A DNA stretch of 64,000 nt, from NCBI GenBank assembly GCA_965202905.1, contig OZ241868.1, forward strand, positions 2,848,040 to 2,912,039. The letters are read 5' to 3'. The translations under genes and the position numbers were made by a program. Source of the stretch: Alphaproteobacteria bacterium (GTDB lineage Bacteria > Pseudomonadota > Alphaproteobacteria > MPNO01). Shown piece by piece: positions 25,920-32,868 of this stretch. Every line of letters starts with the position of its first letter. Position 1 is the first letter of the stretch. The notes below the pieces were generated by a model. The model saw nothing but the letters and a program-made list of their open reading frames with translations, was not told where the DNA came from and made no database searches.

Positions 25920-26087
25920 ATGAACGATGACGTGAAAAAGACCATCGAGACTGCTCCCACCGCGAAGGGCGGCAGCGCGGAGACGACACGCTGGACCCGG
26001 CCGGCGATCCACGAACTGGGCCGCGTTCAGAGGACGGAAAGCGGCACTACGGTTACGGAAGAAGAAAATTCGGGTTGCAATGAGTAA
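25920..26087 (+). CDS. Lasso peptide precursor 1 (55 aa; below ORF-track cutoff)
   Basis: GGAGGAGG RBS; MNDDVKKTIETAPTAKGGSAETTRWTRPAIHELGRVQRTE|SGTTVTEEENSGCNE; WxxP leader, Thr(-2), Glu9. Confidence 0.8.
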   Translation: MNDDVKKTIETAPTAKGGSAETTRWTRPAIHELGRVQRTESGTTVTEEENSGCNE

Positions 26088-26355: not shown

Positions 26356-26407
26356 GATCGCCGCGAACTTGGGGCCGCGCGGCGGCGGGAGCGGGGAGTA
26401 CGCCTCT

Positions 26408-26737
26408 TTGGACACTGATTTGGACACCGACTTGGGCATCGACTTGAGTTCCGTCGTCGAGCGCAACGACGACATCGTCTTCACCGACCTCGACGACGCC
26501 ATCGTGATGATGGACGCCGACATGGGCCGCTACTACGAGTTCGACAAGACGGCGGCCCGTATCTGGTCCCTGATCGAAACCCGCCCCACTGTGGCCGAGC
26601 TGTGCGCCGCGCTGGACGCGGAATACGACGACGTCGATTCCGACACCTGCCGCACCGACGTGCTCGGCTTCCTGGCGGAGGCCCGCGAGCTCGGGCTCAT
26701 CCGCGCGAGCCCGCGCCAGGACGGCGCCGACCGATGA
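26408..26737 (+). CDS. PqqD-family RiPP recognition element (lasso B1)
   Basis: DIVFTDLDDAIVMMD...GRYYEFDKTAARIWSLI...LDAEYD...DVLGFL; GGGGAG RBS before TTG. Confidence 0.88.
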   Translation: MDTDLDTDLGIDLSSVVERNDDIVFTDLDDAIVMMDADMGRYYEFDKTAARIWSLIETRPTVAELCAALDAEYDDVDSDTCRTDVLGFLAEARELGLIRASPRQDGADR

Positions 26738-26850
26738 CCGCCCGCCGAACGCGTCACGCATCCGATCTGTCCCCGCGTTACGGGGCGGGGTGGGCAGGGC
26801 GGTTTTAGCGACGCCCCGCTTGACGCGGCCGGCGACCGCGCATGAGGACT

Positions 26851-26879
26851 TTGCTAATCTGGAGCGCTGCCTGTATAGT
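26851..26879 (+). promoter_or_regulatory. Sigma70-type promoter of precursor 2
   Basis: TTGCTA-17 nt-TATAGT about 70 nt upstream of ATG 26948. Confidence 0.55.
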
Positions 26880-26947
26880 CTGGAGCGCCGCGCGATGGTG
26901 ACCGGACCGGCCGAAGCCGGGACCGAGGCGAGGAAGGGGAATGAGAC

Positions 26948-27157
26948 ATGAACGACGGCGTGAAGGAAGACTTTCAAAGATTACCCTCCCCGCCCCGCCC
27001 CGCGAGGGATAGCGGCGTGGAGCGGGCGCGCTGGACCCGGCCGATCGTCCGTGAACTGGGCTGCGTCCAGGAGACGGAAACCGGCTACCACCTGGCGCCG
27101 TTCGAGGGTAATTATACCAGCCCCACAGGCAGAGATACGGGAGAAACATTCTCATAG
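26948..27157 (+). CDS. Lasso peptide precursor 2 (69 aa)
   Basis: ...RWTRPIVRELGCVQETE|TGYHLAPFEGNYTSPTGRDTGETFS; Thr(-2), Glu9, C-terminal Ser. Confidence 0.85.
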   Translation: MNDGVKEDFQRLPSPPRPARDSGVERARWTRPIVRELGCVQETETGYHLAPFEGNYTSPTGRDTGETFS

Positions 27158-27296
27158 CGCACGCTCATGGCGCACGGCCGTCCTCCGTGGCGGGCGGTGT
27201 GTGCGCCCGGGTCAGTTGGGGCTTGCTTTTGCGCCGCGCCCGGGGATATGATCCGCGCGCTTCGCCCTTCCCGACAATACGGTTGACAGACGGCCC

Positions 27297-28226
27297 ATGA
27301 GTACCGACAGCTACACCGCCTACGGCCTGCACATCCGCTCCGAGCTTGCGCTGCACTTTCCGCCGGCCGATCCGGCGATGGCCGCCACGGCCGCCGATGT
27401 GACGGTTCGTCTCGGCGCGGCGCCCGCCGCCCTGCCTGCCCCGGCCGACAGCCTGGGGTTCTGGCAGACCGCCCCCGGCGCCTTTCTGCTCGACGTGCAG
27501 GGGGTCGCCCGCTATCTGGTCAGCGACGGTCGCGACATCCTGGTCGATCCTTCGCCGCAGGCGGGGGACCGGGATCTCGGGGTCTTTCTGGCGGGTTCGG
27601 CGATGGGGGCGCTGCTCCAGCAGCGGGGGGTGACGACCCTGCACGCCAGCGCCATCCGGACCGAGGGCGGCGCTGCGTTCTTCCTCGGCCATTCGGGGGC
27701 CGGCAAGTCGACGCTGGCGGCGGCCATGCAGCGGCGCGGCTACGCGCTGCTGGCCGATGACGTCACCGCGCTGTCGTGGGACACCGGCGGCCGACCGCAG
27801 GTGCTGTCGGCCGCCCCCGGGGTCAAGCTGTGGGCCGACGCGCTGAAAGCGCTGAGCCTCGACGGGCGTGAGCGTGAGCGGATACGGGACGGCATAGAGA
27901 AGTACCGGGTATCGCCGGGCGGTTTCTGCGCTGCGCCGCAGCGTCCTTGCGCCGCCTTCGTCCTGGGCGGGCACAACCGGGACGAGTTCGAGACGACGAC
28001 CCTGGGGCGCCGGGACGCCTGCCGTGTGCTGACGACGTTCACCTACCGCCCCCGTTATCGGCGCGGTCTGGGGCAGACGCTGTCGCATTTTCGTATGACG
28101 ACGGCGCTGGCGAAGCAGACGCCGACGATCCGGGTGACGCGGCCGTCGGACCTGTCGCGCATCGAGATGCTGGCGGACCGGATCGAGACGGCGCTGCAAG
28201 CGCCGGAGCAAGCGGTGGCGGGCTGA
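27297..28226 (+). CDS. HPr-kinase-like lasso peptide kinase
   Basis: LHASAI, Walker A GHSGAGKST, LADDV; context resembles paeninodin PadeK-type kinases. Confidence 0.85.
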   Translation: MSTDSYTAYGLHIRSELALHFPPADPAMAATAADVTVRLGAAPAALPAPADSLGFWQTAPGAFLLDVQGVARYLVSDGRDILVDPSPQAGDRDLGVFLAGSAMGALLQQRGVTTLHASAIRTEGGAAFFLGHSGAGKSTLAAAMQRRGYALLADDVTALSWDTGGRPQVLSAAPGVKLWADALKALSLDGRERERIRDGIEKYRVSPGGFCAAPQRPCAAFVLGGHNRDEFETTTLGRRDACRVLTTFTYRPRYRRGLGQTLSHFRMTTALAKQTPTIRVTRPSDLSRIEMLADRIETALQAPEQAVAG

Positions 28227-28236
28227 GGGTCGGGCG

Positions 28237-29112
28237 GTGTCGATCGTCTGGATCGCGGCCTATCCCAAATCCGGCAGCACGTGGCTGCGGACGATGCTGA
28301 CCAACTATCTGCGCCCGGACGACGAGCCGGCTTCGATCAACAATCTGTTGGGCGGCGTGGGCGGCAGCAGCCGGGCGACGTTCGACGATATGCTGGGGCT
28401 GGCCTCGTCCGACATGACGGAGGACGAGGTGCTGCGCTGTCGCCCGTTGTTCCAGGAGTTGCTGGCCGCGGAGCTTCCCGATCCCACCTTCTACAAGACG
28501 CACGAAGCTTGGCTGCGTGGTCCCGGCGGCGCGCCGGTGCATTCCCGCGCGGCGACGGCCGGCGCGGTCTATCTGGTGCGCAACCCGCTGGATGTGGCCG
28601 CGTCCTACGCGCACCACCTGAACCGGCCCGTCGACAAGACCATCGAATGGATGGACGATCCCGACGGCCATGAATGGGGCGGCAGGAAACGGATCACGCA
28701 AACCCTGCCGCAGCGCATGCTCACCTGGAGCGGGCATGTGTCGAGCTGGCTGGACCAGGAAGAGATCCCTCTGCACGTCGTGCGCTACGAGGACATGCTG
28801 GCGGCCACCGTCGACACGCTCGGCGGGATCGTCCGCTTCGCCGGGCTGGATGTCGACGCCGCCCGGCTGGGCCGGGCGGTGGACCACGCGTCGTTCGAGC
28901 GGTTGCAGGCGCAGGAGGCGGATTCCGGGTATCGGGAGAAGCAGGCGACGGCGCGGTCCTTCTTCCGCAGCGGGGTTGCGGGCGGCTGGCGCGAGTCGCT
29001 CGGCGAGGATCAGGTGCGGCGTCTGCTGGCTGCGCACGGGTCGGTCATGGAGCGGTTCGACTATCGGCGCGAGGCCGAGTCGTTTCTGTCGAACGGCGAG
29101 GGCCGCCGATGA
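28237..29112 (+). CDS. PAPS-dependent sulfotransferase
   Basis: 5'-PSB YPKSGSTW, KTH, 3'-PB VRNPLDVAAS, FFRSGVAGGW. Confidence 0.9.
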   Translation: MSIVWIAAYPKSGSTWLRTMLTNYLRPDDEPASINNLLGGVGGSSRATFDDMLGLASSDMTEDEVLRCRPLFQELLAAELPDPTFYKTHEAWLRGPGGAPVHSRAATAGAVYLVRNPLDVAASYAHHLNRPVDKTIEWMDDPDGHEWGGRKRITQTLPQRMLTWSGHVSSWLDQEEIPLHVVRYEDMLAATVDTLGGIVRFAGLDVDAARLGRAVDHASFERLQAQEADSGYREKQATARSFFRSGVAGGWRESLGEDQVRRLLAAHGSVMERFDYRREAESFLSNGEGRR

Positions 29113-30902
29113 TCTCGGGCTTTTACGCGCGGCGGGGCGGCGGGGCGGCGGCGGCCTCCCCGGCGGATGCCGGCCAGCTTCGGCCGGACCCGGCGGTCGG
29201 CCTGTCGGGTGCGGAGGACCTGCGGTCGGAGGACCGTGAGGCCGGGCTGACGGTGGTGGCGGATTGCCGCCTCGACGACCGGGCCGCCCTGGCGGGCGCG
29301 CTCGGCCTGCGCGACGTGGAGTCGCTGTCCGACAGCGCGCTCATCCTGGGGGCGTATGCGCGCTGGGGGCGCGACTGCCCGTCGCATCTGTTCGGCGACT
29401 ACGCGTTCGCGGTGTGGGATGCCCGCCGTCGCACCCTGTTTTGCGCCCGTGACCATGTCGGCGCGCGCGCCTTCCACTACGCGCTGACCGCCGAGCGGTT
29501 CGTCTTCGGGAGCGCCGTCGGGTCGGTGCTCGCCGCGCCCGGCGTGCCGGACGCGCTGGACGAGGAGGTGGTGGCGGGGCTGCTGTCGCCGAAGGTCCGG
29601 ATGCCGGTGGATCGCAGTTGTTTCCGGGCCGTGAAGCGGCTGTCGCCGGGCCATATGCTGGCCGTGGAGCCGGAGTCGTTGCGCATCGAGCGCTGGTGGC
29701 GGCCGGAGGCCGCACCGTCGGTCGCGCCGACCTCGGACGACGACCGTTCGCAGACCTTTCTCGCGCTGTACCGGCAGGCGGTGGGGGACTGCCTGCGCGG
29801 GGCTGCGGCGGGGTCGGTGGGGACGCATTTGAGCGGCGGTCTGGATTCGTCGAGCATCACGGTGCTTGCGGCCGAGGAGTTGCGCCGCCGGGGGGAGCCG
29901 CCGCCGACGGCGTTCGCGTGGCAGCCGGCGCCGCCGTCGGGGACGGCCGGGGAGGATGATGCGAACGCCGACGAGTATCGCCTCGTCGAGGCGACGGCGA
30001 GCCGGGCGGAGACGCCGTTGGTCTGGTGCGCGCCCACCGGGGCCGATGTGGAAGCGTGGCTGCGCCAGGACGGGGCACGGGAGTGCAGCAGCGATACGCT
30101 GCTGCACGAGATGTCGGTCCAGCGGGCTGCGGCGGCGCGCGGGGTGCGTCGGATACTCTCGGGCTGGGGTGGCGATGAATGCGCGTCCTACGGCGGTCGC
30201 GGCTATTACCAGGAACTGCTGCTCGGCGGTCGCTTCATCCGGCTGTGGCGGGCGCTTCGCGCGCGCCGGTCTTCTGCGAAGAACGCCCTGTCGGCGGTCG
30301 TTCTGCCCTTGCTGCCGTTCGGGATGGAACTCGCCGTCCGTCGCGCTTTGGATTCGGAGCGCACCGCGCCGCCTCCGCAGCGCTCTTTCGCGCATCCGGA
30401 TCTCGCGCGTCGGTTCAAGCTGCGCCAGCCCGACCTCGGGACGAGAGGCGTTCGGCAGAGGCAGTGTAGCCTGATCGGGCAGGGTCATCTGTGCGAGCGC
30501 ATGGAAGGTTGGGCGCTGGAGGGGTCGCGTCGCGGCATCGAGTACGGCTACCCGCTATTGGACCGTCGTCTGATGGAGTTCGTCCTGGGGCTGCCGCCGG
30601 AGCAGTTTCGTCAGGGGCGCTGGAGCCGCTGGGTGATGCGCCACGCCCTTCGCACGGTGCTGCCGCCGGAGGTGTGCTGGTACACCGACAAGCGTGATCC
30701 GGTGCGTTTCGCGGGTTTTCGGGGGAGCGTGATCGAGACGCTGCCGGTGCTCCACCGCGAGTTGGCCGGTCGCGCGGCGGCGCCCTCGCGGGCGCGCTAT
30801 GTCGACATGCCGCATTTGCTGACCTGCCTGGAGGATGGCTGGCCGGCCGGGGAACCCTTTGCCTACCGGGCGCTCACGGCGATGCGGTTTCTCGACTTCT
30901 GA
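29109..30902 (+). CDS. Asparagine-synthetase-like lasso cyclase (C protein)
   Basis: LSGGLDSSS, SGWGGDE, YPLLDRRL; lacks the N-terminal catalytic Cys of glutamine-dependent AsnB; overlaps the sulfotransferase stop. Confidence 0.85.
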   Translation: MISGFYARRGGGAAAASPADAGQLRPDPAVGLSGAEDLRSEDREAGLTVVADCRLDDRAALAGALGLRDVESLSDSALILGAYARWGRDCPSHLFGDYAFAVWDARRRTLFCARDHVGARAFHYALTAERFVFGSAVGSVLAAPGVPDALDEEVVAGLLSPKVRMPVDRSCFRAVKRLSPGHMLAVEPESLRIERWWRPEAAPSVAPTSDDDRSQTFLALYRQAVGDCLRGAAAGSVGTHLSGGLDSSSITVLAAEELRRRGEPPPTAFAWQPAPPSGTAGEDDANADEYRLVEATASRAETPLVWCAPTGADVEAWLRQDGARECSSDTLLHEMSVQRAAAARGVRRILSGWGGDECASYGGRGYYQELLLGGRFIRLWRALRARRSSAKNALSAVVLPLLPFGMELAVRRALDSERTAPPPQRSFAHPDLARRFKLRQPDLGTRGVRQRQCSLIGQGHLCERMEGWALEGSRRGIEYGYPLLDRRLMEFVLGLPPEQFRQGRWSRWVMRHALRTVLPPEVCWYTDKRDPVRFAGFRGSVIETLPVLHRELAGRAAAPSRARYVDMPHLLTCLEDGWPAGEPFAYRALTAMRFLDF

Positions 30903-31162
30903 GGCTTTCCATTCCCTCTGAAGTTGAAGTCGGTCGGGCGGGCGTTGGGCAGGATGAGACCGTGCGCCGACCGTGCGCCGGATGCGGATCGTCGAGAAAC
31001 GAAAGTCGCTTTCGGTCCGGAGCGGCGGACGCTTCGCCGCCGCTCCATTCCGGGCCGCCCGGTGTTCGGGGCGCGGCGCCGCGCCGACGGAAGCAGGCTG
31101 CAACGCCACGCCTGACCGGTTGCGGACGGGCGCCGCCCGGTCGGCTGTACGGCGAATTCATG

Positions 31163-31191
31163 TTGACCGGCAGGCCGCCGGTAAGTACGAT
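31163..31191 (+). promoter_or_regulatory. Sigma70-type promoter (cassette copy B) upstream of precursor 3
   Basis: TTGACC-17 nt-TACGAT; RBS GGGAG before ATG 31282. Confidence 0.6.
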
Positions 31192-31281
31192 CGGCGCGTG
31201 TCGAAGGTGGATCGCTCACAGGCGGCCGACGGCGCGATACGGCGCGACAGCGCCCGACTCTTGAACTCAGGGAGTGAAAAC

Positions 31282-31451
31282 ATGACCAGCCATCGAGACG
31301 CCCTTGTACCCCCCCCCCCCCGCAGGATGAGGCGCGGGAACGCTGGACCCGGCCGATGATCCGCGAACTGGGCCGCGTCCAGAGGACGCATAGCGGCTCT
31401 GGCACTGGTGTAGTTGAGAATAGCGAATATTTCAACATCGACGCGTCGTGA
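31282..31451 (+). pseudogene. Lasso peptide precursor 3, frameshifted at a poly-C tract
   Basis: MTSHRDALV-[C13]-QDEARERWTRPMIRELGRVQRTH|SGSGTGVVENSEYFNIDAS; in frame only with C11 or C14. Confidence 0.8.
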
Positions 31452-31758
31452 CGCACGGCCGCCGTCACTCTGCGGAGAGCGCGGCGCCGGGGCTTGGCGC
31501 TACGGGTTCTACGCCGGACAGGCGTTGGACGCCGATGCCCTGATGGCCCTCAACCGACGGATCGACGCCTTTGCCGATGCGTTCGATGTCTTCAGACCCC
31601 ACTAGGCCCTCGGCAGACATCCCCCCGAGAGTATTTCGACCGACGCGCAGCCGACCGGAACCCTCCCGCCTCAATAATCCTGAACCCGGACGCCCCCCTT
31701 TGACTGCGGCTCACGCTGTCTTATTATGGCGCGAATCGAAAGGGAGGGCCGGCCGCTC

Positions 31759-32868
31759 GTGCAGCAAATCGATTACGCATCCAGCGCTTGTCCGGTGCGC
31801 GAGGATTTGATCGCCGCCCAGCGCACGGCGTGGCGGCGCCTTGCCGGGCCGGGGGCCTTCCTCGACGGTGCGCGCCGCGTGGCGGTCGCCCGCGAGGTGC
31901 GCAACGCGCCGTCCTGCGCGTTGTGCCGGCGCCGAAAGGAGGCGCTCTCGCCGTTTGCCGTGGACGGCGCCCATGACGGCCTGGGCGAGCTCGGCGAGAC
32001 CGAAATCGACGCCATCCACCGGATCGTCACCGATCCCGGCCGGCTCAGCCGCGAGTGGGTCGAGGGCCTGCTCGCCGCCGGGCTCGACGACCGGGAATAC
32101 ATCGAGATCGTCAGCGTCATCTGTGTCGTGACGGTCAACGACACCTTCCGCCGCGCGCTCGACCTGCCGCCGTTCGAACTGCCGGAGCCGGCCGCGGGCG
32201 CGCCGTCGGGCTATAGCGCGCCGGGCGCCAAGGCACATGACGGCTGGATCCGCTTGCTCGTTCCGGAGGATGTCGTCCCCGGCGACGGCGCGGTTTACAG
32301 CACGCTTGCGGTCTCGCCGGTGGTCAAGGCGCTGTCGCTGGTCCCCGAGGCCAAGCGGCATTACTGGGACCTCGCCGAGACGATGTACCTGCCCGGCGAA
32401 GAGATGCCCAACTTCGCAACCGGGATCAGGGCCATCGACCGTGTGCAGATGGAGATCCTCGCCACGAGAGTCTCCGCGCTCCATCAATGCGTCTACTGAA
32501 CCGGCTCCCATGCATTCATGCTCCGTGAGAGCATCCGGACTTCCGGGACCGCGTTCGATCTGCGCGCCGCGATGGGCCGGGCGCGCGGCGACGGCGGGGT
32601 CGAGAGCGGCCAGAACCTCGCCGACTTCGCCGAGGCGATCACGCTGCAAGACCGCGCCCGGACGGCCGGGCTACGCGATGTCCTGGCGCGCGAGCTGGGG
32701 GTGGAAGCCATGGTCGACGCCGCCGCTGTCGCTTCGGTGTTCCACGGCTTTGTCCGGGTCGCGGACTCGACGGGCGCGCCGCCGGCGGGCGCTTCGGGCG
32801 GCCGGGTGACGATGGAGTTCCGTGAGGAGCTTGGGATCAACGCGTTCTTCGGCGCCGCGCACCGCTAG
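31759..32868 (+). CDS. AhpD-like alkylhydroperoxidase-related selenoprotein (CxxU, UGA at 32497-32499)
   Basis: [24 protein letters not shown] continues in frame into ORF 32518..32868; hairpin ATGCTC-CGTGA-GAGCAT downstream. Confidence 0.82.

Follow-up and report, generated by a model that had tools for sequence, protein, structure and literature searches.

The gene at positions 31282-31451 of the window (the whole 64,000-nucleotide stretch of DNA that was analysed) is a predicted lasso-peptide precursor gene in which the start codon lies in one reading frame and the leader motif and core peptide lie in another, with a run of 13 C's where the two frames join. On balance, we lean towards the reading that the frame of this precursor is set by a hypermutable poly-C tract and that its translation is phase variable through slipped-strand mispairing. 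The preliminary description of this DNA had proposed phase variation from the single gene. The proposal is now strengthened by a tract at the same site in 29 paralogues (8-30 bases), by the random frames of the long-tract copies and by sister loci that differ in tract length; for 31282-31451 itself we infer on/off switching, and the C13 call is insecure.

Anatomy of the precursor gene

The gene is preceded by a ribosome binding site, GGGAG at 31270-31274, separated by a 7-base spacer from the start codon ATG at 31282-31284, and the type-A paralogues have the same arrangement. The features of the gene and its promoter are as follows.

31163..31191, + strand: sigma-70-like promoter, TTGACC-17-TACGAT, 9/12 matches, inside the upstream module common to the paralogues
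31282..31359, + strand: product of the ATG frame as assembled, 25 residues (MTSHRDALVPPPPRRMRRGNAGPGR), with its stop at 31357-31359; the putative OFF state
31282..31308, + strand: N-terminal leader piece MTSHRDALV, in the ATG frame; type-A copies keep M[TP][NDS]HR[DN]ALV
31309..31321, + strand: poly-C tract (poly-proline codons), beginning 27 bases after the ATG; its length determines the frame, and the two overlapping frames join there
31323..31391, + strand: remaining leader in the other frame, QDEARERWTRPMIRELGRVQRTH, with the W codon of RWTRP at 31344 and Thr -2 at 31386-31388
31392..31451, + strand: core peptide SGSGTGVVENSEYFNIDAS and stop; Ser1 and Glu9 (31416-31418) are the predicted ring partners, and the C-terminal residue is Ser

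The poly-C tract, C13 at 31309-31321, is the sole C or G run of at least 9 bases within the 64-kb window. The frame one base back from that of the ATG opens after the TGA at 31275-31277 and reads KHDQPSRRPCTPPPPQDEARERWTRPMIRELGRVQRTHSGSGTGVVENSEYFNIDAS (ending PPPPQDEARERWTRPMIRELGRVQRTHSGSGTGVVENSEYFNIDAS) as far as the stop at 31449-31451. Reading this frame from 31278 to the W codon at 31344 gave no ATG, GTG, TTG, CTG or ATH codon; the first start codon in it is the ATG at 31356, past WTRP. The core, which has the context ...RVQRT-H followed by S1...E9 and the ending ...NIDAS, is readable only in the frame that the tract now disconnects from the ATG. Arithmetic on the two frames indicates that C14 or C11 would fuse the ATG part with the WTRP part. 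Within the leader, the residues R, W, T, R, P, E and T are invariant in family alignments A1 and A2.

A promoter scan of 30900-31750 gave 2 sites versus 0.1 expected, and the paralogues align with the window from position 31150 on at 77-91% identity. An Rfam scan returned two chance-level matches only (E 0.75 and 0.95), and the fold 3' of the stop was not significant (z -1.4).

These results confirm each of the sequence statements in the preliminary description: that ATG 31282 runs into C13, that WTRP and the core lie in another frame with a stop at 31275, and that this frame lacks a start codon upstream of WTRP (none in 31278-31344). The promoter and ribosome binding site that it had placed ahead of the ATG were both located, and its expectation of an intact precursor at C11 or C14 agrees with the frame arithmetic. 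Its identification of the gene as a RiPP precursor is borne out by the lasso hallmarks (Thr -2, the Ser1-Glu9 pair and the C-terminal Ser), every one of which is kept in its disconnected frame, as is consistent with its remark that the core shows no other decay.

The lasso cluster

Judging by sequence, the gene has the hallmarks of a kinase-tailored class II lasso peptide, as described for paeninodin (PMC8498205). The cluster upstream of it contains the following genes.

25920..26087, + strand: precursor 1, 55 aa, without a long tract and in frame
26369..26737, + strand: B1 leader-binding chaperone of the PqqD family (Pfam PqqD, E 7.5e-20, above cut-off); start codon uncertain
26948..27157, + strand: precursor 2, 69 aa, with an interrupted proline stretch and in frame
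27297..28226, + strand: HPr-kinase-like P-loop protein, weak matches only; candidate kinase for the C-terminal Ser
28237..29112, + strand: sulfotransferase (Pfam Sulfotransfer_1, E 1e-23)
29109..30902, + strand: Asn-synthetase-like lasso cyclase (Pfam Asn_synthase, E 2.1e-27, plus GATase_7); start approximate

Curated lasso families gave lower scores for these proteins. B1 (26369-26737) matched NCBIfam lasso_PqqD_Bac with an E of 2.3e-15, below the curated cut-off, and the best NCBIfam match of the cyclase was the lasso isopeptide cyclase NF033535 (E 1.8e-88), again with a bit score below the curated cut-off. The candidate kinase (27297-28226) matched Pfam Hpr_kinase_C (E 8.5e-5, 22.6 bits against a cut-off of 33.3) and NCBIfam HprK_rel_A (E 1.2e-8, 34.5 bits against a cut-off of 200), in each case through its P-loop region alone.

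No B2 transglutaminase-like leader peptidase was found among the cluster genes of the window, and the only B2 protease of the genome (its single PF13471 match) lies in a sister cluster at 2528259-2528573 of the genome (G000), so that B2 would have to act in trans. The cyclase has three copies in the genome with 98-100% identity. The biosynthetic genes as a whole are partly triplicated, at G000 2874408-2878938 (which is window 26369-30902), 2523511-2527113 and 3256601-3259021; the genome holds three cyclases, two kinases plus a fragment, two sulfotransferases (92%), two PqqD proteins and one B2.

The precursor family and its tracts across the genome

The genome is one closed contig of 3,868,867 bases (3.87 Mb, 67.7% GC) with a sponge metagenome as its context, and the organism, judging by its records, is uncultured. 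Searching all six frames for the WTRP leader motif yielded 57 matches, 2 of which were false and were dropped, leaving 55 small precursor-like ORFs; this count is a lower bound, as the WTRP pattern misses some decayed or divergent members, such as copy 2532360 and P0031. Nearly all paralogues have an acidic residue at core position 9, and the C-terminal Ser is found in 50 of the 55 family members, counted by hand from the core table.

An unbroken run of C8-C30 occupies the equivalent leader site in 29 of the 55 precursors. The site lies ~7-11 codons before WTRP in all three N-terminal leader types, and each type includes some copies with an unbroken C run and others with a short or interrupted proline stretch.

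The tract is far beyond chance. Of the 50 homopolymers of at least 9 bases in the genome, 49 consist of C or G, with lengths of up to 30 bases; run counts drop steeply to C8 (C6 236, C7 31, C8 6), beyond which 26 C and 23 G runs of 9-30 bases form a tail. Outside the precursor tracts the genome avoids writing proline runs purely as CCC: none of the 158 runs of at least three prolines in 1384 long ORFs was coded entirely by CCC, in a genome where CCG makes up 63% and CCC 29.5% of proline codons.

Judged from their flanks, ~20 long C or G runs lie outside the lasso precursor family, and these may be further contingency loci; examples are 962333-962347 (C15), 2402489-2402501 (G13), 2742371-2742381 (G11), 1804103-1804112 (C10) and 3152236-3152245 (C10) of G000. 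Separately, many type-B and type-C copies offer two possible start codons, which differ in frame and have a seven-base separation (ATGAGACATG). At copy 2219278 it is the first ATG that shares the frame of the core, not the ATG proximal to the ribosome binding site; the first lies ~one base after GGAG, and from this placement its use was judged unlikely.

Reading frames and integrity of the copies

Frames were assigned by hand from the start codon proximal to the ribosome binding site and, with the aberrant copy 3554622 left out, 28 long-tract copies were scored. Only 9 of these 28 were in frame, versus 24 of the 26 copies with short or interrupted tracts (Fisher p = 5e-6), and the three frames of the long-tract copies were represented 9:13:6, a distribution for which uniformity was not rejected (p = 0.27). 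Nearly all of the out-of-frame long-tract copies had well-preserved cores, 17 of the 19 keeping Thr -2, an acidic residue at core position 9 and a core of at least 14 residues, and 18 of the 19 keeping the C-terminal Ser. The contrast between long and short tracts, together with the intact out-of-frame cores, indicates that selection acts on the frame at stable runs, that the frame is randomised at long ones and that the disconnected cores are not decaying. A few copies clearly carry damage of another kind: a truncation in 3574705, a frameshift within the core of 3571348, loss of the ATG in 2643973 and decay in 2532360.

Tract-length change between near-identical copies

A sister locus, which follows the duplicated cyclase at 2.527 Mb, has C16 versus C13 at 31309-31321. 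Over the 158 bases upstream of the tract the two loci differ by 1 substitution and one 10-base indel, and after the tract 58 bases are identical, followed by 13 substitutions in the ~60 bases of the core. With C16 the sister gene is out of frame, in the same phase as the C13 gene. Other paralogue pairs with flanks at least 93% identical also have unequal runs (C16/C12, C17/C18 and C10/C15), and among five short-tract pairs the runs were equal in four, the fifth (C5/C6) being a differently built proline stretch. The tract length thus changes faster than its flanks, a change seen between paralogues, not between alleles of 31282-31451. Taken together, the random frames of the long-tract copies and the length changes between near-identical copies indicate that the tracts are truly hypermutable and set the frame.

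The C run also marks a boundary between modules. Some precursors are hybrids in which a type-C upstream piece is joined to a type-A downstream piece exactly at the run; these hybrids, at G000 2256419, 2260531, 2262610, 2265089, 2531269, 2533057 and 2258550, combine the upstream module MSDGVKKTFKDY with the downstream leader QDEA.TRWTRP. In another assembly, protein P0010 has a core one residue off that of copy 2262610 and a different N-terminal module. The hybrids and P0010 together point to the C run as a recombination junction as well, and the comparison of these sequences suggests module swapping between precursors at the run.

Other assemblies, relatives and sequencing runs

Of the 35 family proteins recovered by a profile search, 29 belong to this genome and the other 6 to small contigs elsewhere. 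One of these 6, P0015, from another assembly, has the core of G000 copies 2256419 and 2258550 with four prolines versus two in the in-frame G000 copy. A 1673-base contig of another alphaproteobacterial MAG (L066) encodes a type-B precursor with C15, in frame, and with a core absent from G000.

No orthologous locus for 31282-31451 was found in 40 relatives or in metagenome contigs. In a DNA search of the 40 relatives and G000, no other genome matched the precursor part, and three matched only the downstream repeat. Among metagenome contigs, a 31-base core-specific pattern had 0 matches and a 19-base family pattern had 6 loci, none with a WTRP ORF; the three of these loci that were inspected (L052, L054 and L056) were unrelated sequence. 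A protein search with the post-tract part of the precursor gave one match, to a different peptide. The cyclase, searched for in 20 genomes of the family, was absent from both genomes of the same genus (G001, 64% complete, and G002, 100% complete), and a 49% identical cyclase was present in one genome of another genus; no WTRP-type precursor was found in the ORF list of the first 1700 bases of that locus.

Eight sequencing runs from two studies contained the region as contigs rather than reads, and four of them (X5, X7, X1 and X2) were compared over 30800-32300. The contigs are fragmented around the tract because its flanks are common to the paralogues, and one X5 contig ends inside the tract. 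Contig record 27 of X7, 48 bases covering 31291-31338 at a depth of ~3, has zero differences from the window and reproduces C13; its combination of flanks occurs only at the 31282-31451 locus within G000, and the record may derive from the same material as the assembly. A second X7 contig, with two extra C's (depth 4.2), was set aside as most likely the C15 paralogue at G000 3560319, the flanks likely being common to both.

Long C or G runs also occur in two other genera of the family, with 435 ten-base windows in G006 (to at least C29) and 46 in G005 (including a G26). The runs sampled from these two genomes (L024, L025, L028 and L041) lie in contexts other than lasso leaders, one of them being a C29 immediately ahead of a signal-peptide-like ORF, and long G/C homopolymers may be a trait of the lineage.

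Proposed mechanism and alternative explanations

We propose that the piece before the tract would supply the promoter, the ribosome binding site, the ATG and a few dispensable N-terminal residues, and that the piece after it would carry the RWTRP...T motif and the core, which the PqqD chaperone, the protease, the cyclase and the tailoring enzymes are presumed to need by analogy with other systems. Slipped-strand mispairing during replication would add or remove C's, such that C13 would be OFF, C14 or C11 ON and C12 OFF; from C13, the gain of one C would turn the gene on and the loss of one would leave it off. The gene would be one of ~28 switchable members in a library of at least 55 precursors, so that different cells would make different subsets of peptides. 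Loss of mismatch repair was ruled out as a cause of slippage by the finding that MutS and MutL are intact in the genome, and instability would therefore come from run length alone. Switching within the population, its rate and the processing of the ON form are inferred. Overall, hypermutable frame-setting tracts fit homopolymer phase variation, newly applied to a library of RiPP precursors.

We consider it rather unlikely, although it is the alternative to which we give the most weight, that C13 is an assembly artefact, in which a gene with a true modal length of C14 or C11 is intact and the assembled length is a homopolymer miscall in a long-read metagenome assembly. The preliminary description had rightly named sequencing error as a rival. 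That the genome is one closed contig of 3.87 Mb with a sponge metagenome context is as expected of a long-read assembly, miscalls of ±1-2 would yield random frames among long tracts, and the core is without decay. In addition, a GC3 frame test called frame changes at 21 of 138 6-base runs (15%) versus 7.4% at 3-base runs, an excess that makes some homopolymer error or pseudogenes in the assembly possible. Runs of 5-7 bases nevertheless appear to be called consistently, as 24 of the 26 short-tract precursors are in frame and 0 of 11 7-base runs showed a frame change. The 48-base X7 contig gives exactly C13 with locus-specific flanks, though at a depth of ~3, and the differences of 3-5 bases between near-identical paralogues are larger than expected of ±1-2 miscalls. 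Moreover, the 19 out-of-frame copies are split between 13 that -1 or +2 would restore and 6 that +1 or -2 would restore, a mixture that no single calling bias explains. Even if the artefact were real, the tract would still be a candidate switch.

Two further explanations accept the out-of-frame state and are, in our view, improbable to a similar degree. One is leaky decoding, in which RNA-polymerase slippage or ribosomal frameshifting on the CCC run would partly restore the frame and the tract would act as a dimmer. Whichever frame is read, the C run is perfectly slippery. Decoding by tRNA-Pro readily shifts by +1 at CCC-C, and transcription slips on long homopolymers; a +1 shift would rescue 13 of the 19 out-of-frame copies, and the out-of-frame copies remain intact. 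The gene at 31282-31451, however, needs -1 or +2 rather than +1, and slippage is less efficient on C/G than on A/T runs. Programmed frameshifting and transcriptional slippage likewise place a slippery homopolymer between two overlapping frames, as is the case here within one gene, but in those genes the out-of-frame arrangement is conserved, whereas here it is not, with uniform frames (9:13:6) and 9 of the 28 long-tract copies in frame. The other is that the gene is a plain pseudogene, its CCC repeat expansion a neutral by-product and the copy dead, on its way out of a redundant family. The high redundancy of the family, with at least 55 copies and only one B2 protease, a window cluster in which no protease was seen and the few copies that are clearly broken otherwise (3574705, 3571348, 2643973 and 2532360) are consistent with this. 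Against it, 17 of the 19 out-of-frame long-tract copies, including 31282-31451, have no second lesion, the tracts are uninterrupted over 8-30 bases though pure CCC is avoided elsewhere, and the equivalent site carries a tract in three leader types; that short-tract copies are nearly always in frame also argues for selection on the family. Least of all do we credit use of the internal ATG at 31356, which would yield a short-leader precursor of 31 residues (MIRELGRVQRTH plus the core) and make the tract irrelevant. The ORF at 31356-31451 exists, and gene callers predicted equivalent 31-aa ORFs for other out-of-frame copies (P0032, P0034 and P0035), but no purine-rich ribosome binding site precedes 31356 and the in-frame paralogues all start upstream of the tract. 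The product would also be without the invariant RWTRP, presumed to be the chaperone recognition site by analogy with the YxxP leader motif, which has this role in other lasso systems.

Phase variation through the poly-C tract, our preferred reading, leads to a broader proposal that we hold tentatively and with less confidence than the switch itself. At least 55 precursors, three cyclases and one protease could form a stochastic chemical repertoire, in which about half of the precursors would be gated by independent poly-C switches, each lineage would have its own heritable and reversible subset of phospho- or sulfo-lasso peptides, and the C run would serve also as a junction for module swapping.

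Comparison with known systems

The tracts resemble the homopolymeric contingency loci of Neisseria, Haemophilus and Campylobacter, in which poly-G/C runs drive phase variation (PMC5084427, PMC3025981). As far as these accounts describe them, the likenesses are an unbroken run of at least 8 in the 5' coding region that sets the frame, many such loci per genome, near-identical copies that differ in run length and frames at random proportions. Unlike the contingency loci covered there, which concern surface structures, restriction systems and receptors, the genes targeted here encode secreted RiPP precursor peptides, and the putative switch recurs in ~28 paralogues from one gene family. Their host, in which switching is predicted from sequence, is a sponge-associated alphaproteobacterium of high GC content whose MutS and MutL are intact.

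For the biosynthetic genes, the nearest comparison is with the phosphorylated lasso peptides of the paeninodin type, whose precursors have a C-terminal Ser that is the target of an HPr-kinase homologue; for some of their clusters a putative sulfotransferase is mentioned (PMC8498205). The split B1 (PqqD), the Asn-synthetase-like cyclase, the kinase-like gene and the Ser-ending precursors are shared with this type, to the extent that it is described there. In contrast, the kinase match here is weak and below the cut-offs, neither B2 nor a transporter was seen in the window cluster, and there are dozens of precursors versus one to three. No paeninodin-type member with a frame-setting homopolymer in its leader was found in the portions of the literature that we could consult.

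The size of the library is closer to that of the prochlorosin and SyncA peptides, for which one promiscuous lanthipeptide synthetase of the ProcM type serves many precursors (PMC10783134, PMC9872173). Both systems, so far as these sources go, have tens of scattered precursor genes with a conserved leader, hypervariable cores and few modifying enzymes, but the peptides here are of the lasso rather than the lanthipeptide class and belong to a different leader family. In the sections of this literature that were accessible, no description of frame-setting homopolymers in prochlorosin genes was found.

Implications

Phase variation has been described in surface antigens, receptors and restriction systems. 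A search of the literature on lasso peptides and RiPPs with phase variation, homopolymer or frameshift found no report of phase-variable substrate genes for natural products. If our reading is correct, the symbiont would diversify its secreted peptides cell by cell while its enzymes stay unchanged, and the logic of contingency loci would apply to secondary metabolism in a host-associated symbiont. RiPP libraries could then be read as bet-hedging against hosts, competitors or phages. Genome mining would also have to treat out-of-frame precursors as silent members rather than junk; gene callers now truncate them to 31-aa ORFs or miss them, and the on/off state of such precursor genes in any single assembly would be unreliable.

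Neighbouring features

The stretch at 31477-31627, downstream of the precursor gene, has eight matches in the relative G006 (70-81% identity) and one each in G002 and G022, and from these matches it looks like a short interspersed repeat common across the bacterial family and beyond. The next gene, 31726-32868 on the + strand, is AhpD-related and contains an in-frame TGA at 32497-32499. With this TGA read as selenocysteine (...HQCVYUTGSH...), the product has 380 residues, the first 257 of which match NCBIfam NF041238, 'alkylhydroperoxidase-related (seleno)protein', with an E of 4.9e-82; the gene probably encodes a selenoprotein that ORF lists split in two.
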